This document shows positions 21,519 through 60,183 of a stretch of DNA of 64,000 bases, one piece after another. Numbering within the stretch: the stretch's first letter is position 1; the number at the start of each line of letters is the position of its first letter. The position numbers and the translations under genes were made by a program. Source of the stretch: Cenarchaeum sp. (GTDB lineage Archaea; Thermoproteota; Nitrososphaeria; Nitrososphaerales; Nitrosopumilaceae); assembly GCA_963693095.2 (NCBI GenBank), contig OY843768.1:672001-736000 (forward strand). Direction: 5' to 3'. The notes under the pieces are model-generated. The model saw only the letters and a program-made list of their open reading frames with translations, made no database searches and was not told the origin of the DNA.

Positions 21519-21540
21519 GATCGATATGCGGCCAATCCTG

Positions 21541-21789
21541 TCACTCGTCATCCTTGTCCACGTCCTTCTTATGGCAGTCGCACCCTTCAAACTTACACCG
21601 CTCGGGCTCAATATTGTCAAAGTCCACCCGGCCGCCAAACTCCATGACGCCATGAACTATGCCGACGCGGCCTCCGAGTATCCACTGGGTGTTCGCCTCC
21701 CTGTCCTCCCTGTTTATCCTGTCCGCCTCCTCTTCGGTCGGGCCTAGCAAGGCAATCTTCCTGAACAGGCGGTATAGCCGATCGCGCAT
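21541..21789 (-). CDS. 82-aa hypothetical protein, copy 1 (constant N-terminus, variable Cys-containing C-terminus)
   Basis: MRDRLYRLF...VME-FGGRVDFDNIEPERCKFEGCDCHKKDVDKDDE; TATA-like box about 25 nt upstream. Confidence 0.75.
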   Translation of the reverse strand: MRDRLYRLFRKIALLGPTEEEADRINREDREANTQWILGGRVGIVHGVMEFGGRVDFDNIEPERCKFEGCDCHKKDVDKDDE

Positions 21790-21906
21790 GGGGCAGGCCG
21801 GACGCGTCGCCCTATATATTAAAATCGTCGATATGGCGCACTTTTTGCGCATGGCGCAGCGTCACGCGCGCCGTGCTGCTGCATGACAGGCACGTGGCCA
21901 ATCCTG

Positions 21907-22155
21907 TCACTCGTCAACCTCTTTCACGTCCATTTTCCGGCAGCCGCACCCCTCAAAAGTACACACAAAGGGCTTCACCCTGCTAAAGTCCACCCGGTAG
22001 CCATACTCCATGACGCCATGAACTATACCGACGCGGCCTCCGAGTATCCACTGGGTGTTGGCCTCCCTGTCCTCCCTGTTTATCCTGTCCGCCTCCTCCT
22101 CGGTCGGGCCCAACAGGGCAATCTTCCTGAACAGGCGGTATAGCCGATCGCGCAT
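21907..22155 (-). CDS. 82-aa hypothetical protein, copy 2
   Basis: Same 50-aa N-terminus, then YGYRVDFSRVKPFVCTFEGCGCRKMDVKEVDE; only synonymous changes in the N-terminal part. Confidence 0.75.
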   Translation of the reverse strand: MRDRLYRLFRKIALLGPTEEEADRINREDREANTQWILGGRVGIVHGVMEYGYRVDFSRVKPFVCTFEGCGCRKMDVKEVDE

Positions 22156-22203
22156 GGGGCAGGCCGGACGTGTTGCCCCATATATGCAAATCGCCGTTCT
22201 GAT

Positions 22204-23613
22204 CTATTTCTTGCGCACGGTGTGCCCTTGTGGGCGTCGGCGCGCGCCATGGTCCGGCGATGCCGAAGAGCCGGCCATCCTGCGTGCGGCGGCGACTATG
22301 GTCTCGGCGGCGGCCTCGCAGAGAGTGTCGAGCTGTGCGGCCGGCATTGCCAGTGGCGGGACGATCATGACAATGTTGCCAAGCGTGCGCAGGTATATGC
22401 CGCGCCTCCTTCCCTCCTCGTAGACGATGCGGTTTATCGAGCGGTTTGGCGTGGGCGCCCTTTTCGTGCGCTCGTCCCGGACCAGCTCGACTCCCATTAC
22501 CATGCCGCGATGCCTGACGTCACCGACCATTGGCAGCGTGGCCATCCTGTCGGCAAACGAGCCCAGTACGCGTGATGTCTTGCGTATGCGATCAAGCAGG
22601 CGGTGCCGCCTGTACAGGCGAATGTTTTCGAGCGCAACGGCGGCGGCAATGGGGTTTCCGGTGTACGTGTGGCCATGAAACAGGTGGCGTCCCTCGGCAT
22701 ACTCGCCGAGAAACGAGTCGTGGACCCTGCGTGTCGCAAGCGTTGCGCCAAGCGTCACATATCCGCCGGTGAGCATCTTGCCAAATGACACAATGTCAGG
22801 CCTAGAGCCCTGCGCGGTGTACTCGGCCATCGATCCAAGGCGGCCAAACCCCGTGGCAACCTCGTCGAGCACTAGGAGCGCGCCATGCCTGCGGCATGCC
22901 CTTGCGATCCCGCGCTGGTATCCGCGCGGGTATATGCGCACGCCTCCGGCCATCTGCGCGCCGCTCTCCATGACTAGCGCGGCGACATCCCCGCGCGCGA
23001 GCCGGCGCTCGGCGGCCTCGACGCACTGTGATGCGTCATCGTCCGGATCGCATGAGCGGTGGTACGCGTCAGGTGCCGCAACGCGCGAGACGCCAAAGAG
23101 GTGTCCCTTGAAGCGTGAAAAGAACTGTGCCGAGTACCCGATCGACATTGCGCCAAACGTGTCCCCGTGGTATCCGCCCTCGAGTGCCACGATCGCCGAC
23201 CTGGCGCGCTCGCCGGCGTTCTGCCAGTGCTGAAGGGCAATCTTTGTGGCGACCTCCATCGCCGTCGAGCCATTGTCCGAATAGAACACGTGGGACATTC
23301 CTGGCGCGATGCTGACAAGCTCCTCGGCGAGTCGTTCGGCCGGCCCGTGCGTCAGGTTGAAGAGCGGCGAGTGGGCAAGCGTGGCGGCCTGGCGCGACAT
23401 TGCGCGCACTAGCTCGCGGCGCGAGTGGCCCCACACATTGCACCACATTGACGCTACCCCGTCAAGCAGGCGCGTCCCGTCAGCGCAGACGAGGCTCATC
23501 CCGTCCCCGCGGACTATCTCATCAAAGGCGGCCCACTCGCGCATCTGCGTGTTTGGGTGCCACACGCGGCTGCGCGCCGCTCTTCCCTGGGCAGGCCTGC
23601 CGGTGTTCGCCAC
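22204..23613 (-). CDS. bioA: Adenosylmethionine-8-amino-7-oxononanoate aminotransferase
   Basis: VWHPNTQM, YSDNGSTAMEVA, GYHGDT, DEVATGFGRLG, GKMLTGG and HGHTYTGNP. Confidence 0.95.
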   Translation of the reverse strand: MANTGRPAQGRAARSRVWHPNTQMREWAAFDEIVRGDGMSLVCADGTRLLDGVASMWCNVWGHSRRELVRAMSRQAATLAHSPLFNLTHGPAERLAEELVSIAPGMSHVFYSDNGSTAMEVATKIALQHWQNAGERARSAIVALEGGYHGDTFGAMSIGYSAQFFSRFKGHLFGVSRVAAPDAYHRSCDPDDDASQCVEAAERRLARGDVAALVMESGAQMAGGVRIYPRGYQRGIARACRRHGALLVLDEVATGFGRLGSMAEYTAQGSRPDIVSFGKMLTGGYVTLGATLATRRVHDSFLGEYAEGRHLFHGHTYTGNPIAAAVALENIRLYRRHRLLDRIRKTSRVLGSFADRMATLPMVGDVRHRGMVMGVELVRDERTKRAPTPNRSINRIVYEEGRRRGIYLRTLGNIVMIVPPLAMPAAQLDTLCEAAAETIVAAARRMAGSSASPDHGARRRPQGHTVRKK

Positions 23614-35257: not shown

Positions 35258-38200
35258 TCATGCGGGCAGGTGCGCGTCCAGTCCGGCCCTTTTAGGCGTC
35301 CAGTTCTTTGGCTCAAACTCGTCTGGAAGCGTGGCGATTATGCGGTCAGACTCTGCGCCGACGTGCACGGCGCGCTCGATGACTGCTATAATGTCGCCCT
35401 CGCCCATGCCCTCTAGCGGATTGTTGACTATCTGGCTGTCCCTGTCGACTGTGCGGTTGTAGCGGTCAACGACCCACTCTAGGGGCGTGCGGCCGTTCAC
35501 CGTGTACCTTGGCTGCGGAATGCCCTCAAAGACTATGACGTTGTTTATCTTGATCTTTGTCTTGTCGGCCTTCATGCCGATGCGGCCAAATGCCACCTTG
35601 GCTGGCTTGCCAAACTTTTCCTTTGGCCTTCCGAGGTTGAACCTCTCGCACGTGTCAAAGTTTAGGTGCAGGTCTGCGAGCTTTTTGCCTGCCTGGCTGA
35701 ATTTCTTAAAGTCAGGAGCCATCGGGATGTTTGGTAGGTCTTTGGAGAGATTGTTGGCGAATTTGCTGCGATATCCGTAATGGTGGAGAAGGCCGTATAC
35801 ATAGTAAAATATGTCTTTTTTGAAAATTTGTTTATTTTGGTAATGTTGTCGGTATTCGTACAACGCGTGATCTGTAATATTGTCATTTCTGGAATTGGTG
35901 TTATCGTACACATACAACGAAAAATATTGACCATTTTTGACAATTTGTAGATCGGGAACAATGTTTGTTATAAACGTTGAAAAATTTCCTGTAAATTTGT
36001 AAGGTGTGCAGATTACCATGTTTTTTGAGTCTCCGTGAGGAAACATGTGTGGAATTTTGTAGACTGCCCCGTTGTACGTTCTGTCAAAATACAGGTGCTG
36101 CTTGAAAAATGGCCTATACAAGGCAGGCCTGATGCTCTTGGGGAAAAACCCGGGTCTTGATTTTTTGAGCTTTGTTTTTAGATCTGCCGACCACTGTGCC
36201 ATCTTGGTGTCTATTTTTGGACTGGACAAGCTCTGTGTATTACAATACTCTATGTGCCTGCGCATGTTCTTTTTGAGCTCTCTTTCTGACGAGTTGTACG
36301 CCCACATATCACGATGTGTTTTTACGCCCGACGAATACAGTCGAAATATGGCGTTGCTTCTCCCCGCCTTGGCGGCTTTGCTCCCCATGGGCGAGTAGTC
36401 GGAAAACCGGTCGTCACGCTGGCCGATCCAGTCGTCGTGGCGATCCGGCCGTATGGTTTCCCAGTCCTCGATGCCACGTATTGACCCGAACCCCTTGACG
36501 GCCTCGAGCTTTTCCTCCCTTGTCAGGTAGTCGCCTATGTCCCTGTAGTATATCCTGGCCGCACCACGTTTGTCGGCGCTGTAACGTGGACTCCTAACCA
36601 GAATGGTGACTGCCACCGGCGCCCTGGAGCCCATTCCGAATATGTTGCCGCCCTCGCGGCGGCGCGTCTCGCCCTGCGTCCGCTGGTTTGCGCGCAGGTC
36701 GAGGCACCACACCTCATCAAACTCTCTTGCGATCGAGGCGCGTATGCCTGCCGCCGCGTCAGAGCGCACAAAGCTCGCGTTGGTAACGAACGCCACAATG
36801 CCTGTCTCGCCTATGCGGTCGCTCGCCCAGCGCAGGGAGCGAATGTACGAGTCGTAGAGCGAGTTCTTGTTGTGCGCCCGCGAGTGCCTGACGTACGTGT
36901 CGCCTATGCGCCTGTCGATCTCGGGGTACCTCATGTTGGGGTTCTCGTCGTTGTAGTTGCTCTGACCAGACGAGTACGGCGGGTTCCCCATGATCACGTC
37001 CACGCTAGTAGCCCTCTGGCGCCTGACGCGCTCGTGCGCCACCCTGAACATCCCGCCAATAGTGGCCTGCTCACCCCTGTGCTCCTTGCCGCTGAGGTAG
37101 CGCGGGTTCTGACGGAGCGTGTCGGTGTAGCTGATCCCCTCAAACGGAACATATCTACCGCCGTTCCCGCTAGAGTATGTCGTCTCTATGTTCACCGTGG
37201 CGATATAGTAGGCCAGCAGTATCATCTCGTTTGCGAGCAGGTCGTTCCGGTACTTTTGGTACGCGTTGTCGCCTAGCAGCCCTGAGTCAAGCAGGCGTGT
37301 GATGAACGTCCCCGTTCCTGCGAACGGCTCGAGGACCTTCACGCGCCGGTCGTCAAACCCCATGCCAAAGCGCGTTTTGAGCACGTGCTGCACGCTGTGT
37401 ATGACAAAGTCGACCACCTCGATCGGGGTGAAGACAACGCCGTGCTTTTCCGTCGCCTTTTTGGCCGTGCTCTTGAAAAAGTTCTCGTACAGCGTCTTGA
37501 TAAAGTTCTGGCGTGCCTCAGACTTTGTTATGGTTTTAACTTCTTCTTTTACGCTGACATAAAATCTTTCTAGCTCTTCAAGCTCAGAGTCCAGTCCAAA
37601 GCTTGCTGCCATCCCTGATATGACCTGCGATATGGGATTGTGCGACGTGAACTCTCCACTGAACAGCTCATCAAAGACACGCGCGAGCACGACGTGCTGC
37701 GCGATCACCCTTATGGCGTCATCGCGCGTGACCGAGTCGTTGATGACTGACTGTAGGCTTGTGTGAAACTCGTCCAGATCCTGGCTCCTTGACTGTGACG
37801 ACTTTAAGATGGTCCGTATGCGCATCTCTACGGTGGCCGCCGCTTCTCCGATCTGACGACCATACGCGTTATAGTAGTCAATGTCACCAACCTTGCGTAT
37901 GAGTGTGGACTTTATCTTGTCAAATAACTCCGGCATGGTGATGCTGTCCGGTTCTTTTACGTCTAGTATTGAGACGCTGATTCTGGGCGTTATCTCGCCT
38001 TTTTCACCAGGTGTCCTGTCCAAAATGAGTGAGTTAATCTCGCGAGCCAACGACTCGTCATGCGAGCGTAGCGCATTGAGAACCTGCCAGACGGTTCGGT
38101 ATGACGGGTGTTTGTCAAGTGCCTTGGATCTGTCGACACCTGCAGGTATGGCAACAGGCAGCACGACATATCCTGTATCCTTGCCGGGCGCCCGCCTCAT

Positions 38201-39940
38201 GACTCTGCCTACTGACTGGACAATGTCCACAATGGACTCTCGTGGGTTTAGAAACACGACACCATCCAGTGCAGGAACATCAACACCTTCAGAGAGACAT
38301 CTGGCATTAGAGAGTATGCGGCATGTATTGGGCTTGCTGTCGCTCTCAGACAGCCATCGCATCTCCTCACGTCGGCGCAATGCATTCTTTTTGCCATCAA
38401 TGTGCCTAACATCAACATCATTTGTTGCTGAGGTTACTGTCCCAATGTCGTTAACTACGCCCGCAAAACTTAGGTCATTGCCATTCTTGTCTGGAGCAGT
38501 GCCTGCAAACATCTCTGAACGGTCTATTCGATTTGTGAACGCAATGACTTTTTGCAAGAGTTTTGGCTTGCTCTCACCTTCTGGATGCTGCAGTCCATGC
38601 CATACGGCAGCCAAAAGGGTTCTTTCACCGAGGGGCATAGCCCCCTCCTTGGAAATTGACTGTTGAAACTTCATGTTCACATACTTTGTGCTCACCATGG
38701 GTATGATGACCTTAAAGTCGGCAAGCGCACGATGCTTGTGAACAGCATCAACAAAACCCAGATTATGGAATTCAGGCCCATAGGTCTTTTTGTCATCCAT
38801 CGAGTATATTGCTGGAGACCCCCCATCTTCGTTCAGCTTGTGTTTGCGTGCTTGTGAGACTCTACCACGTGCTGCCCTCTTGACTGCCTCGCCGTATATC
38901 TTTGGCGTCGCAGTCATGTAGAGGCGCTTTTTTGATGGCACGTTTCGATCGCTATGAACATATGTATAGTGTGAGTCGTTCTCGGCGCCGGTGGTTCGGT
39001 GTGCCTCATCGCACAGAACCAGATCAAACTTGCTGCCAAATGCCCCCGAGGCAACCCTTATGGAATGATATGTGGAAAATATCACCGTCATCGCATCCTT
39101 TGCCAGCTTGCCGTTGACGTGCTCTCTCAAGTCAGCCTCTTTGGTTGATGCGGGGCACTCTAGCTCGGTGATCGACCCCTCCTCACCACCTGCGCTCCTG
39201 TCCGAGCAAACGGCTAGGTAACGGTGTTTTATGTCTGCATTGTCAGCCCATTCCCTCATACTCTGCAATATTAGCGAGATTGACGGAACAAGGTACAGGA
39301 CAGTTCCGCCCTTGCCCACAATCTTCTCTGCAATTCGAAGTGCCACGAGCGTCTTGCCAGTGCCACATGCCATGATTAGTTTACCTCGATCGTCATCATC
39401 AAAGCCTGCAATAACGTCATCAAATGCGCTTTTTTGATAGTCGCGCAATTTTTTTGGGTATTTGGGAACTAGTTTTGGAAATGTCCTCCAGTCAACACTT
39501 CCGGCACGCAAGTGTGCCGATGTCATTATGTGGCATTTGGTTTTTGTAAGTACGTTCATGGCATTACGACTGATATATTCGCCGGTGTAGACCAAGATCA
39601 AATTTTCAATCTCGTACGCCTTAGCAGTAGTAATGAATTGTGAGACTTTTTTCATGTCAAGGTTGCTCTCTTTGTCATAACATTTGCATTGGATAGCACA
39701 CTTTGTTCCATCGGCTTCCTCGGCCACAAGATCGACTCCAGTGTCTGGCTTGCCATCATTATCCGGCCACGAACCCCACTTGTATATTTTGACAAATCGG
39801 TTACGATAATGCCTATCTGTCTTGAAAAAATCTACCATAATGTTTTCAAACATGGTTCCAAGATTGTGTGTGCCTTTAGACTCACGACGGATGTCTTTTA
39901 ACACGTCGTCGAACGTGCGTGGAGCCGTCTTGCGGCTCAA
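35258..39940 (-). CDS. Type ISP restriction-modification enzyme (Mrr-like nuclease, SF2 helicase, N6-adenine MTase, TRD; LlaGI/LlaBIII-like)
   Basis: DTGVDLVA...AIQCKCY nuclease; MACGTGKT, DEAHRT, LSEGVDVP and QSVGRVMR helicase; EPFAGTGTF and GNPPYS MTase; RPFFKQ and VNGRTPLEW C-terminal motifs. Confidence 0.92.
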   Translation of the reverse strand: MSRKTAPRTFDDVLKDIRRESKGTHNLGTMFENIMVDFFKTDRHYRNRFVKIYKWGSWPDNDGKPDTGVDLVAEEADGTKCAIQCKCYDKESNLDMKKVSQFITTAKAYEIENLILVYTGEYISRNAMNVLTKTKCHIMTSAHLRAGSVDWRTFPKLVPKYPKKLRDYQKSAFDDVIAGFDDDDRGKLIMACGTGKTLVALRIAEKIVGKGGTVLYLVPSISLILQSMREWADNADIKHRYLAVCSDRSAGGEEGSITELECPASTKEADLREHVNGKLAKDAMTVIFSTYHSIRVASGAFGSKFDLVLCDEAHRTTGAENDSHYTYVHSDRNVPSKKRLYMTATPKIYGEAVKRAARGRVSQARKHKLNEDGGSPAIYSMDDKKTYGPEFHNLGFVDAVHKHRALADFKVIIPMVSTKYVNMKFQQSISKEGAMPLGERTLLAAVWHGLQHPEGESKPKLLQKVIAFTNRIDRSEMFAGTAPDKNGNDLSFAGVVNDIGTVTSATNDVDVRHIDGKKNALRRREEMRWLSESDSKPNTCRILSNARCLSEGVDVPALDGVVFLNPRESIVDIVQSVGRVMRRAPGKDTGYVVLPVAIPAGVDRSKALDKHPSYRTVWQVLNALRSHDESLAREINSLILDRTPGEKGEITPRISVSILDVKEPDSITMPELFDKIKSTLIRKVGDIDYYNAYGRQIGEAAATVEMRIRTILKSSQSRSQDLDEFHTSLQSVINDSVTRDDAIRVIAQHVVLARVFDELFSGEFTSHNPISQVISGMAASFGLDSELEELERFYVSVKEEVKTITKSEARQNFIKTLYENFFKSTAKKATEKHGVVFTPIEVVDFVIHSVQHVLKTRFGMGFDDRRVKVLEPFAGTGTFITRLLDSGLLGDNAYQKYRNDLLANEMILLAYYIATVNIETTYSSGNGGRYVPFEGISYTDTLRQNPRYLSGKEHRGEQATIGGMFRVAHERVRRQRATSVDVIMGNPPYSSGQSNYNDENPNMRYPEIDRRIGDTYVRHSRAHNKNSLYDSYIRSLRWASDRIGETGIVAFVTNASFVRSDAAAGIRASIAREFDEVWCLDLRANQRTQGETRRREGGNIFGMGSRAPVAVTILVRSPRYSADKRGAARIYYRDIGDYLTREEKLEAVKGFGSIRGIEDWETIRPDRHDDWIGQRDDRFSDYSPMGSKAAKAGRSNAIFRLYSSGVKTHRDMWAYNSSERELKKNMRRHIEYCNTQSLSSPKIDTKMAQWSADLKTKLKKSRPGFFPKSIRPALYRPFFKQHLYFDRTYNGAVYKIPHMFPHGDSKNMVICTPYKFTGNFSTFITNIVPDLQIVKNGQYFSLYVYDNTNSRNDNITDHALYEYRQHYQNKQIFKKDIFYYVYGLLHHYGYRSKFANNLSKDLPNIPMAPDFKKFSQAGKKLADLHLNFDTCERFNLGRPKEKFGKPAKVAFGRIGMKADKTKIKINNVIVFEGIPQPRYTVNGRTPLEWVVDRYNRTVDRDSQIVNNPLEGMGEGDIIAVIERAVHVGAESDRIIATLPDEFEPKNWTPKRAGLDAHLPA

Positions 39941-40049
39941 TCATGCACCCACTCCGTTGTTTTTGTGTGTACATTGCAGAAATTTTGTTAATTTTAAGAA
40001 TTGGCCTTTGGTATAGGCCTCATTTTTTACATATTTTTGGTGTAGTCTA

Positions 40050-40112
40050 CCAGAGCGCCAGAGCGCCAGAGCGCCAGAGCGCCAGAGCGCCAGAGCGCCA
40101 GAGCGCCAGAGC
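40050..40112. repeat. Octamer simple-sequence repeat (CCAGAGCG), 7 full copies plus 7 nt
   Basis: Perfect tandem array 110-170 bp upstream of the type ISP gene. Confidence 0.95.
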
Positions 40113-40412
40113 AGGATCCGGATCGGAGTTAGCGCGGGTCTATGCGCAATATATGTGTATGATAATTTGGTGGTGAGCATCAAAATGATTCCCCCGCTCT
40201 GCCTGTGCCGGCCTCATCTCTCTCATCAGATGCCACATCGGCAAAATTGGCCAAGAGTGCACCACGCAGCGTCGCTACATGACATCGGTCATACGTCACA
40301 TTCGTCACACAACCCATCCTTGATGTCATCCCCCAGCCCCCCAAGTGATTTTAAGTCTTGTGAGATATGGCTGCAGTGTGGCACGTGTGGGCACCGTGAG
40401 ACACGGCCAACC

Positions 40413-41525
40413 CTAGGAGCGCATGACTAGCACGGTGGATGATGTGGCCGCCGCTGCCATGTTGTGGACCAGGCCAGTTCGGGCAGACTCGACCTGTCGC
40501 CTGTCAGCCCGTCCTCCAAGCTGCCTCGATATCTCGACGGCCTGTGCGATGCCTGTTGCCCCTAGCGCGTGGCCTGCGCCCAGTATTCCGCCACGCGGGT
40601 TTAGCGCCCTGCTGCCCGTTGAGTGCATGTCGCAGATTGCCGCAGCGCCACGGCCCTGTGGCGCCATGCCGACGGCCTCGGCTGCCATCGCCTCGCACAC
40701 GGCAAACGCGTCATGGACCTCGGCTACGTCAATGCCCGCAGCGTCCGTGCGCGCCATGCGAAGCGCGTCAGCTGACGCCTTTGCGGCAGACTCGAGGCGT
40801 GACATTGAAGGGTTGGACAGCAGGCCGGCCCCAAGCGTGCTCTGGCCGACACCGCATATCCACGCAGGCGTCTCACAGGCCCTGCGCGCCACGCCTTCAG
40901 AGGCCACAATCACGGCCGCAGCGCCCGTGCACGCCCTCGAGCACTCTAGGAGGCGCAGGCCCGGCGCGACGGGGCGCGAGGCCATGACATCATCGACCGT
41001 CCAGGCGTCGTGCGCATAGGCATCAGGGTTTGCCTGCGCGTTCTGGTGCGCGCGTGCGGCGACTGTCGCAATCTCTTCGGCGTTTACGCCATGCTCGTCC
41101 ATGTATGCGCGCGCAAAGCGTGACGCCCATGCCACCGGACGGCGGTCATCCCCGCGCGACTCGTCCCACTCAAACACGCGACCCGGCCCGTCATGCGCGT
41201 CGGCTCCGGCAACGAGAATCATGTCGGCAAGTCCTGCTTTGACGTGCGCGTATGCCGAGACTATTGCGTTTGTCCCCGAGCTGCAAAGGCTCTCAACGGT
41301 CTGCGCGGTTCCGGCCTGCGCGCCGAGTGCCTCGGCGAGGATTGGGCCAAGATATCCCGCATTGTCGTTAGTCGAGACGATGACGCCCCCAATGTCAGCA
41401 CCCTCGATGCCATTCGTGGATCCCAGCGCGCCTTGCGAGGCTTCGCGCAGCAAGCCCTCGATCGAGGCGGTGCCATGTGCCTCAAAGCGCACAGTTGCGG
41501 CGCCCACTATGGCCACACGGTCCAC
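40413..41525 (-). CDS. Thiolase-family protein (SCP-x-like acetyl-CoA acetyltransferase)
   Basis: VESLCSSG, AEVHDAF, NPRGG...GHALGATG and GLVHNMA. Confidence 0.9.
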   Translation of the reverse strand: MDRVAIVGAATVRFEAHGTASIEGLLREASQGALGSTNGIEGADIGGVIVSTNDNAGYLGPILAEALGAQAGTAQTVESLCSSGTNAIVSAYAHVKAGLADMILVAGADAHDGPGRVFEWDESRGDDRRPVAWASRFARAYMDEHGVNAEEIATVAARAHQNAQANPDAYAHDAWTVDDVMASRPVAPGLRLLECSRACTGAAAVIVASEGVARRACETPAWICGVGQSTLGAGLLSNPSMSRLESAAKASADALRMARTDAAGIDVAEVHDAFAVCEAMAAEAVGMAPQGRGAAAICDMHSTGSRALNPRGGILGAGHALGATGIAQAVEISRQLGGRADRRQVESARTGLVHNMAAAATSSTVLVMRS

Positions 41526-59001: not shown

Positions 59002-59046
59002 TGGGGGACTTGATCGGCAATGTCTCCGCAAACCCTGCTTAACCTA

Positions 59047-60151
59047 TACTCACGAGCTAAAGTTCGTATAGATGATCAAGTTTCCCCGACCCCGCAGCTA
59101 TATTGATCGCCCCCTCCCGCGCCAGGGCATGGACGACCGGAAGCGGGAGGAGCTGAGGGACGCGCACCACAGCGAGAAGAGCGGGCACGTGAGGGACAGG
59201 ATGCTCGCCGTGCACTGCGTGGTCAACATGGGCATGACGCACGAGGACACGGCGGACACGCTGATGCGGTGCCCGGGGTGGGTCGGCAAGTGGGTTGCGC
59301 GGTACCGGGAGGGCGGGCTTCCCGCCCTCCGCGACCTCCCGCGCTCCGGGAGGCCGCTGGCCGTGCCGCGAACGGCGCTCGACGGGATCCTCGCCGACGC
59401 GTCGGGATCCCCCACGACCCCGGCCGCGGTTCGCGACAGGATCGCCGGGGCGGCGGGGACACTGTTCCACATAGCCAGCGTGAGGAGGCTCATGCGCGAG
59501 TTCGGCCTCTCGCGCAAGAGGCCGCGAAAGGCCCACGTCAACAGGGCGAGCGCGTCCGCCGTCCGCAGCTGGCAGCGGCGCCTTGCGGGGGCGGCGCCAC
59601 GCCTGGCGCGCGCGGGATACACGATGCTGGTGCAGGACGAGTCGATCATCGTGAACGACGCCGGGGGCATGGCGACGCACTGGACGCCGCGCACGGTGCC
59701 CGTCTACGAGCCGTACACCGGGAGCCACGAGCGGATCGTCGTGTACGGGGCGATCGCCGAGGACGGGCGGCAGGCGTTCCGGACGCGCGACAAGTTCAAC
59801 GCGGACACGTTCGCGCAGTACCTTGCGGAGCTGCACGGGAAGTTCGGCAAGATCGCCGTCATCGTCGACAGGGCTCCCCAGCACCGCGCGGGGGCGGTCA
59901 AGGACCTGCTGCGCGCCAACGGCGAGATCAAGCTCATCGAGCTGCCGGTGGGATCCCCGCAGCTAAGCGCCATCGAGGGGACGTGGCGCATACTCAAGAG
60001 GGACGTCAGGGTCCCGGGGCAACCACGAACCCTGGACGAGCTGAGGATCGCGGTCGGCGAGTACCTCAGGACCAAGCGGTTCAACCTGAACATCTACGCA
60101 TACCTGAACAGGAAGGTCGTGGAAGGTCACACGAACTTTAGCTCGTGAGTA
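59047..60151 (+). mobile_element. IS630-family insertion sequence, intact
   Basis: Perfect 21-bp TIRs TACTCACGAGCTAAAGTTCGT (59047-59067 and 60131-60151) flanked by TA at 59045-59046 and 60152-60153. Very GC-rich interior. Confidence 0.95.
59072..60148 (+). CDS. IS630 DDE transposase (single ORF)
   Basis: HTH WVARYREGG..AL.D.PRSGRP; catalytic QDES, VDRAPQH and PQLSAIEGTW. Confidence 0.93.
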   Translation: MIKFPRPRSYIDRPLPRQGMDDRKREELRDAHHSEKSGHVRDRMLAVHCVVNMGMTHEDTADTLMRCPGWVGKWVARYREGGLPALRDLPRSGRPLAVPRTALDGILADASGSPTTPAAVRDRIAGAAGTLFHIASVRRLMREFGLSRKRPRKAHVNRASASAVRSWQRRLAGAAPRLARAGYTMLVQDESIIVNDAGGMATHWTPRTVPVYEPYTGSHERIVVYGAIAEDGRQAFRTRDKFNADTFAQYLAELHGKFGKIAVIVDRAPQHRAGAVKDLLRANGEIKLIELPVGSPQLSAIEGTWRILKRDVRVPGQPRTLDELRIAVGEYLRTKRFNLNIYAYLNRKVVEGHTNFSS

Positions 60152-60183
60152 TATCTTTTTGGATCGTGCCAGGCTCGTTCACC

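Follow-up and report, generated by a model that had tools for sequence, protein, structure and literature searches.

The window analysed here, a stretch of 64,000 nucleotides (nt) of a Cenarchaeum sp. genome (C1:672001-736000; genome 2,003,945 bases, 60% G+C, two contigs, C1 and C2), carries a type ISP restriction-modification (RM) gene, ISP1, preceded by a leader that contains a perfect octamer repeat. ISP1 lies on the minus strand and codes for a protein with the complete type ISP architecture, in which Pfam models identify an Mrr-like nuclease, a ResIII/helicase region, an ISP coupler, an N6 methyltransferase and a Type_ISP_C domain (Table 1). By this domain order ISP1 is a type ISP RM enzyme, with ATP-dependent translocation and cleavage and site-specific N6-adenine methylation as its predicted activities. 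Its closest named relatives are records from Nitrosopumilus, Cenarchaeum and Nitrosopumilaceae. The lactococcal, plasmid-borne enzymes LlaGI and LlaBIII, which we take to be type ISP enzymes, share the order of nuclease, superfamily 2 ATPase, coupler, N6-adenine methyltransferase and C-terminal specificity region; membership of ISP1 in the family rests on the Pfam models. To our knowledge, no repeat-based control has been described for LlaGI or LlaBIII.

The next gene upstream, a thiolase-like gene, ends at 40413 and leaves a space of 472 nt in front of ISP1. The TTG at 39940 is assigned as the true ISP1 start because two homologues that are 74–76% identical, a paralogue on contig C2 (ISP2) and a gene in a genome of the same genus (G004), have their ATG at the aligned position, and because an in-frame stop precedes it; no usable in-frame start is present further upstream. 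A first-pass annotation of this stretch had described a TTAAAA box near 40350, a 49 residue open reading frame (ORF) whose TGA overlaps the ATG of a second ORF, an octamer repeat inside that second ORF, and a TGA at its end that abuts the in-frame TTG of the type ISP gene. All of these elements are found in the sequence, and the identity of the gene is confirmed by Pfam and its start by the homologue alignment. The two upstream ORFs are joined as TGATG (-1 nt) at ATG 40180, and the distal TATA-like box that contains the TTAAAA ends 18 nt before the first ATG of upstream ORF 1 (40329) and 30 nt before the second (40317). Tandem Repeats Finder reports the octamer tract with period 8, 7.9 copies, 100% matches and a score of 126. 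Its unit is not a multiple of three, and the ORF that surrounds it has three different fates by frame. Frame 0, that of ISP1, remains open over the 106 nt that follow the repeat (34% GC; P = 0.069 in 5000 shuffles at this single locus). Frame -1 meets a TAG at once, 109 nt before the TTG, and frame -2 meets a TAA 20 nt on, 89 nt before the TTG, as the annotation had stated in placing both stops within 30 nt. It had also named the same octamer at many unrelated loci as contrary evidence; a three-unit octamer pattern matches only inside the tract in the whole genome (reversed control, 0 matches), and the octamer as a dispersed element was rejected. An Rfam scan of 39850-40450 with E up to 1 gives no matches.

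Table 1. Features of ISP1 and its leader, in window positions; domains are given in residues (aa) of ISP1
Feature	Position	Strand	Details
ISP1, type ISP RM gene	35258..39940	minus	1560 aa; TTG start at 39940; ORF and Pfam
Mrr_cat_2	ISP1 aa 40-154		88 bits (Pfam)
ResIII	ISP1 aa 163-347		85 bits (Pfam)
Helicase_C	ISP1 aa 505-583		33 bits (Pfam)
ISP_coupler	ISP1 aa 689-808		86 bits (Pfam)
N6_Mtase	ISP1 aa 815-1001		27 bits, cut-off 20.4 (Pfam)
Type_ISP_C	ISP1 aa 1197-1508		277 bits (Pfam)
Hairpin GAGCCG-CAAGA-CGGCTC	39922..39938	minus	begins at the G of the TTG; in the minimum free energy (MFE) structure
TGA of upstream ORF 2	39941..39943	minus	directly abuts TTG 39940, distance 0, same frame
Shine-Dalgarno-like motif GGAGTGGGTG	39946..39955	minus	6-15 nt before the TTG, within the 3' end of upstream ORF 2; paired in the predicted structure
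TTAAAA box, candidate internal promoter	39992..39997	minus	between repeat and ISP1; not conserved in the ISP2 and G004 leaders
Octamer repeat (CCAGAGCG)x7.9	40050..40112		perfect; unit written as on the plus strand, coding-strand units CTCTGGCG; Tandem Repeats Finder
Proximal TATA-like box ACATATATT	40148..40156	minus	aligns with ATTATAATATA of the ISP2 and G004 leaders
Upstream ORF 2	39941..40183	minus	carries the repeat, in frame with ISP1; 79 aa from ATG 40180, 80 codons from TTG 40183
Upstream ORF 1	40180..40329	minus	49 aa; second in-frame ATG 40317; 54 aa if from TTG 40344
Distal TATA-like box CTTAAAAT	40349..40356	minus	contains TTAAAA 40354-40349; common to all three leaders of the genus

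Start regions normally avoid structure. The ISP1 start window from -20 to +32 has an MFE of -19.8 (z = -2.36 against dinucleotide shuffles), and the G004 gene carries GAGCAG/CTGCTC at the position of the ISP1 hairpin, with one pair changed on both sides. Among the places of the family survey described below, the 16 at which a leader stop abuts the start have a median MFE of -18.1 kcal/mol (z -1.49), with z < -2 in 6/16, or in 4/12 when the places are collapsed by family. The 29 non-abutting family places have a median MFE of -9.7 (z +0.57; z < -2 in 2/29), and 72 bacterial places have -9.4 (z +0.41; z < -2 in 2/72). Predicted hairpins hold the stop and start in the loop, with the Shine-Dalgarno-like arm paired with codons 2-4, at G392, G086a/b, G019a and G078b, and place the start codon in the stem at G376, G326, G392d and G107a.

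It is reasonably probable that a phase-variable leader ORF switches ISP1 by termination-reinitiation, aided by melting of the start hairpin. The octamer tract would serve as a hypermutable frame selector, such that each unit added or lost (8 nt, or 2 mod 3) would shift ribosomes crossing the tract among the three frames. In the frame of the assembly, the leader ORF would carry ribosomes 109 nt further to the TGA abutting the TTG; a ribosome stopping there would have melted the structure over the Shine-Dalgarno-like motif and the start, and could reinitiate, turning the enzyme ON. In the other two frames, ribosomes would stop 109 or 89 nt upstream, too far away to reinitiate, the start would stay folded, and the enzyme would be OFF or low. 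Since nuclease and methyltransferase are one polypeptide, both would switch together, and a clonal population would become a mixture of restriction and methylation states. Slippage of the tract in the organism, transcription and translation of the leader, and control of expression by its frame are inferred; what sequence and comparison show is the anatomy, its recurrence, a start held in structure, and leaders that are nearly identical but differ in copy number.

Termination-reinitiation has been demonstrated in Haloferax volcanii, where an overlap or a very short distance is reported to be needed and ~20 nt almost abolishes the effect (PMC10666635, PMC6728339). With so strong a distance dependence, the two short frames of the ISP1 leader would be OFF. 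The ISP1 junction resembles coupling in H. volcanii and E. coli as these reports present it, in that the stop touches the start (0 nt) and a Shine-Dalgarno-like motif lies in the 3' end of the upstream ORF (PMC6728339, PMC10666635). In contrast, the coupled pairs that they describe are ordinary genes, often for subunits of a complex, with constitutive coupling, whereas the ISP1 leader is not conserved and its frame would be set by a mutable repeat.

The leaders of the two same-genus homologues share this layout. ISP2, the second type ISP gene of the genome, is 74% identical to ISP1, and the G004 gene is 76% identical. The ISP2 leader contains (CTCCGAG)x8.9 and the G004 leader (CTCCGAG)x17.9, both perfect and both ending 116 nt before an ATG. 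The ATG is directly preceded by a TAG in both, and no stop interrupts frame 0 between the repeat and this TAG (P = 0.084 for ISP2 in shuffles). Outside the repeat the two leaders are ~90% alike, with the repeat number doubled. Conserved islands in all three leaders comprise the distal CTTAAAAT, the proximal TATA-like box, the bases just 5' of the repeat, TAGAC just 3' of it, and GGAG before the start. Contig C2 itself (27.7 kb) is a 95-97% identical variant of C1:1076604-1108349, distinguished by a 6.8-kb insertion that contains ISP2, its repeat leader and a 1.1-kb multi-copy, insertion-sequence-like element, and it is without ~10.8 kb of C1. The notion that C2 is a replicon bearing its own independent copy of this region was rejected; either the sample contains a second strain, or C2 is a duplicated variable island.

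For a wider comparison, 401 genomes of the family Nitrosopumilaceae were searched with the first 400 ISP1 residues, followed by all available genomes of three genera. The survey set consists of 59 ISP N-terminal places (48 + 11) in family genomes plus 3 metagenome relatives, 62 in total; L026, L028 and L043 duplicate G408, G019a and G376b, and each was counted once. A repeat was scored if it was perfect, had at least 2.9 copies and lay within ~120 nt of the start, and 20/59 family places have one. Besides the 8-mer of ISP1 and the 7-mer of ISP2 and G004, these are a 7-mer in G392a, b and c (x10.4, x17.4 and x22.4), a 13-mer in G376a and b (x11.0 and x8.1), a 10-mer in G086a and b, 10-mers in G408, G393, G326 and G473, 16-mers in G392d and G475b, an 11-mer in G019a, 19-mers in G168a and G148, and a 4-mer in G019c (x13.5); G396d, with a 10-mer 271 nt away, falls beyond the 20. 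The 15 unit families have periods of 4, 7, 8, 10, 11, 13, 16 and 19, none of which is divisible by 3. For 14 independent families the chance of this is (2/3)^14, or ~0.003, a figure made optimistic by relatedness. Perfect repeats of three or more copies are found upstream of none (0/72) of the bacterial ISP homologues.

This bias in unit length bears on another explanation, that repeat length alone tunes expression through promoter spacing or through the length or stability of the 5' untranslated region, the frames being irrelevant. ISP1 would then resemble the 7-bp repeats upstream of Haemophilus hmw1A/hmw2A or the AGAT repeats in the Moraxella uspA2 leader. Such a role would suit an intergenic tract with A/T-rich TATA-like boxes on both sides and leader peptides that are not conserved. 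We regard it as unlikely, however, as it fails to predict the 15/15 non-triplet families, the stop abutting the start and the open frame 0 after the repeat. The first-pass annotation had left the choice between translational coupling and promoter spacing open in suggesting that the repeat tunes RM expression. Coupling is now the favoured half of that suggestion, given the recurrence of non-triplet units, the abutting stops, the start hairpins and the differences in copy number. Promoter spacing is disfavoured by the unit lengths, and also by the distance from repeat to start, which is 17-32 nt in 7 places (G392a-c, G376a/b, G326, G019a), so that no room for a promoter would remain downstream of the repeat, while the stop still abuts the start.

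The junction between leader and gene recurs along with the repeats. Of the frames that leave the repeat, one ends at a stop touching the start in 15 places; 13 of these stops abut, as TGA-TTG, TAG-ATG, TGA-ATG, TAA-TTG or TGA-GTG, and in G393 and G473 the TGA of the through-frame overlaps the TTG start as TTGA. Counted with or without a repeat, in-frame abutting stops are present in 16/48 and 1/11 family places and in 0/3 metagenome relatives (17/62), and in 2/72 bacterial ISP homologues that the same search returned. The product of P for the open frame after the repeat, over nine repeat families with the same layout, is 7e-5 in shuffles. Motifs of the GGAG, GAGG or GGTG type precede the start in related leaders at the same place as the Shine-Dalgarno-like motif of ISP1. 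The leaders cannot be aligned, and different loci use different stop and start codons, so what is kept is the arrangement itself. In G376 and G326 the non-reaching frames would differ from those of ISP1, running over the start codon to end inside the gene. The view of the stop as an interruption of an N-terminal extension, or as the mark of a pseudogene, was rejected, since the stop is found again in the same position with different stop and start codons and the bacterial homologues begin at the aligned position.

Two further explanations can be set against these junctions. In the first, the repeat would be a neutral, slippage-prone passenger of a horizontally acquired cassette, ISP1 would be expressed constitutively from TTAAAA 39992-39997 and its own Shine-Dalgarno-like motif, and the open frame and abutting stop would be functionless. 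Both motifs are indeed present, the G+C of the ISP1 gene region (0.48-0.56, vs ~0.60 for the genome) suggests acquisition, and the open-frame P at the single locus is only 0.069. We nevertheless consider this account quite unlikely. The layout recurs in leaders that cannot be aligned, abutting stops occur in 17/62 vs 2/72 places and come with structured starts, and 4/5 of the perfect non-triplet repeats with at least 7.9 copies in the genome lie at DNA-modification genes.

In the second, the frame of the leader ORF would act on transcription, by attenuation or polarity: ribosomes in the long frame would shield the leader transcript from premature termination, and early stops would leave ~100 nt of naked RNA. 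The printed precedent is the pil1 locus of Streptococcus gallolyticus, in which a repeat in a leader ORF controls pilus genes by attenuation (Danne et al. 2014, PMC3894217); in that report, GCAGA repeats change the length of the leader peptide and destabilise a terminator. The ISP1 repeat likewise lies in a short leader ORF and is non-triplet, and in both systems unit number would set how far ribosomes travel and hence downstream expression (PMC3894217). The long gaps of 109-116 nt in ISP1, ISP2 and G004 and the T4-T5 runs in the ISP2 and G004 gaps are consistent with a similar device. The ISP1 gap, however, has no T run >3, the hairpins sit on the start codon itself and not before it, and the 17-32 nt gaps in 7 places are too short for a terminator decision, yet there too the stop abuts the start. 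Exact abutment or overlap is required by reinitiation and not by attenuation, and control of transcription at ISP1 is in our view quite unlikely. Where pil1 is a bacterial pilus locus with a terminator to be destabilised (PMC3894217), ISP1 is an archaeal RM gene whose leader stop abuts a hairpin-held start; the abutting stop and the hairpin point to termination-reinitiation as the candidate mechanism.

Variation in the repeats is apparent between closely related leaders. Copy number differs in near-identical leaders as 8.9 vs 17.9 (ISP2 and G004) and as 11.0 vs 8.1 (the G376 pair). The three paralogous type ISP genes of genome G392 (L109, C1:723283; L136, C1:244032; L137, C5:239379) share identical leaders, with TATCCAT present in 10.4, 17.4 or 22.4 copies. 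G392 also has a fourth type ISP gene, whose repeat is a 16-mer. Should the specificity domains differ, combinatorial states would arise from independent switching.

The relatives also clarify how the leader ORF may be read. In the cleaner ones, a TATA-like box (ATTAAAAT, TTAAAAT, TATAAAT or ATTATAATATA) ends 23-30 nt before a leader ATG or GTG, and this leader start lies 4-12 nt before the repeat. A box-to-start spacing of 23-30 nt is the pattern expected of leaderless mRNAs at archaeal promoters, and suggests that the leader ORF in typical relatives is leaderless. No transcription-start map for Nitrosopumilaceae was found in the literature. When phase is assigned from the nearest start before each repeat (G019a was unassignable), the reaching frame is found in 5/14 places (ISP1, ISP2, G004, G392b and G393), and 9/14 are out of phase (G392a, G392c, G376a, G376b, G086a, G086b, G326, G392d and G473). 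The in-phase share of about one third equals the random-phase expectation. All nine out-of-phase genes have intact frames of 1376-1592 residues, as expected if they are occasionally switched on.

Several observations weigh against a termination-reinitiation switch at ISP1. First, the start of repeat-frame translation is its weakest link and is less clean than in the relatives: the repeat frame can be opened solely from ATG 40180 (or TTG 40183), the ATG 40180 of upstream ORF 2 has no TATA-like box 23-30 nt upstream, and the box that matches the proximal box of the relatives (40148-40156) is downstream of this ATG. The ISP2 and G004 leaders have a GTG 25 nt after ATTATAATATA, and ISP1 has no canonical start between its proximal box and the repeat; translation across the ISP1 tract therefore needs a transcript from the distal promoter and the TGATG relay from the 49 residue ORF. 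Second, the TTAAAA at 39992-39997 and the Shine-Dalgarno-like motif lie between repeat and gene, so that repeat-independent expression is possible. Third, start-region z is near zero at ISP2 (0.19) and G086b (0.21). Fourth, the post-repeat peptide is not conserved, with 8/38 residues differing between C2 and G004 and an unrelated sequence in ISP1, and the region before the repeat has indels between leaders; leader ORFs as genes for conserved peptides were rejected on the same grounds. Fifth, the family is not uniform. The in-phase paralogue G392b has an open frame of only 961 residues, and six repeat-bearing places are off-layout: G408 and G019c, where no canonical start was found, G168a and G148, whose 19-mers contain stops and which read TGA-N-GTG, G396d, with its repeat 271 nt away, and G475b, in which frame 0 is closed. 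Three abutting places (G011, G107a, G078b) are without a repeat. Related loci are moreover not independent, and the statistics therefore overstate the case.

Nine listed sequencing runs, none of them RNA, contain part of the stretch, and 4 of these, from one study, contain at least 0.82 of its words (X1-X4). No unit count can be read from X1-X4, where the k=31 contigs (Logan) end inside the tract, at 40079 and 40083, a further point against the switch. The depth of the 37-nt loop-contig relative to the flank is 2.9 (X2), 3.9 (X3) and 4.1 (X4), where ~4.1 is expected for 63 nt; these ratios are uninterpretable and are not evidence of variation. A search of metagenome contigs for an exact 42-nt flank plus the first repeat unit gave 0 matches, and no second copy of the ISP1 leader was found in the metagenome contigs (flank search) or in the genomes searched. 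A protein search of the metagenome contigs identified 5 relatives, of which three, at 55-58% identity, have neither repeat nor abutting stop. In each of X1-X4 the thiolase gene has a further variant of its 3' end (window 40401-40700), which shows 10 differences in 117-136 nt and is covered at ~1.5 to 2.7 times the depth of the variant found in the window. A contig also joins other sequence at 40401. A close relative of greater abundance seems to be present in the runs as well.

Other loci of the genome carry comparable repeats outside the window. At L155 (C1:1746314-1747420) the 5' end of a gene for a C5 cytosine DNA methylase (PF00145, 309 bits) carries a perfect (GGCA)x34.8 immediately ahead of motif I. 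A single start, a TTG, precedes the tract; with the present number of units it is out of frame with the enzyme, and its frame stops right after the tract. This is the classic layout of a predicted phase-variable gene with the repeat inside the ORF, in the OFF state. A 208 residue ORF without a Pfam match follows. At L154 (C1:33817-34976) a perfect (GGCGTCTC)x12.8 starts 9 nt after an ATG. There a second gene for a C5 DNA methylase (PF00145, 271 bits) has its frame open from the repeat through a 48 residue Lys/Arg/Ser-rich linker, and the ATG frame stops just past the repeat, again an OFF state; the 268 residue ORF downstream has no Pfam match. We count these two C5 methylase repeats in the same genome in favour of a putative switch at ISP1.

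Three further repeats were noted in the genome. L156 (C1:1790912-1791047) is a perfect (CGCCGCAA)x17 between an HSP20 gene and a copy of an IS630-like transposase, with no adjacent RM gene, and the gene once served by it may have been lost to insertion. A run of 21 G at C1:493170-493190 is intergenic and directly precedes a possible ATG; it is another candidate slippage tract. A perfect 9-nt repeat (x11.2) at C1:1095535-1095635 lies inside a 1003 residue ORF, in a variable island that is partly absent from C2; being in frame, it would vary the length of the protein and not switch the gene. Within the window, an IS630-like element of 1.11 kb (~59040-60154) encodes a 358 residue DDE_3/HTH transposase and has 8 genome copies that are >99.5% identical, which suggests recent transposition, and a 366-nt unit is repeated x1.9 with 85% identity at 21530-22217.

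In cj0031c of Campylobacter jejuni the repeat tract is reportedly inside the coding sequence, whereas at ISP1 it lies in a separate upstream ORF, so that the enzyme itself is never frameshifted. The two are alike in that cj0031c, a phase-variable Type IIG RM enzyme, is a single polypeptide switched by a repeat tract, with restriction and methylation varying together (PMC4889913). Phasevarions based on Type III mod and Type I genes are likewise switched by repeat slippage and may reprogramme methylation across the genome; the cases surveyed in the available text of two reports are all bacterial, with repeats inside the mod or hsd genes, unlike the archaeal repeat outside the ISP1 gene (PMC5909438, PMC7383803).

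Literature searches found no archaeal case of repeat-driven phase variation, in agreement with the first-pass annotation, which did not know such a switch to be described for this group of archaea. A 2025 review states that the distribution of phase variation across archaea is still to be explored (PMC11868660), and archaeal phase-variable enzymes are absent from the accessible part of a 2026 review of prokaryotic methyltransferases. Nor did the searches find, in the portions of text available, a paper that combines phase variation and translational coupling as one mechanism. Repeat-driven switching and leader-ORF control are already known; what is new is the archaeal host, the family-wide junction in which a stop touches a hairpin-held start, and the class of target.

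Bet-hedging through slippage-driven phase variation is regarded as a bacterial device, mostly of host-adapted pathogens. Whether Nitrosopumilaceae carry contingency loci of this kind is a proposition for which we see the balance as even: a multi-gene RM set, comprising type ISP enzymes and C5 methylases, would be gated by hypermutable non-triplet repeats, and the gate of the ISP genes would be a mini-ORF, probably leaderless, from which ribosomes pass to the start in only 1/3 frames. If true, Archaea would have their first case of repeat-driven phase variation, and the phenomenon would then reach the third domain and abundant nitrifiers. The design of the switch, repeat-gated termination-reinitiation, would be new in print for any organism, and would constitute a compact, portable ON/OFF module in which the repeat never damages the reading frame of the enzyme. 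RM systems are reported to be enriched in sponge-associated Thaumarchaeota (PMC7848895). The finding bears on virus-host dynamics in ammonia-oxidising archaea, whose clonal and possibly host-associated populations would, if the switch operates, contain mixed states of defence and methylation.

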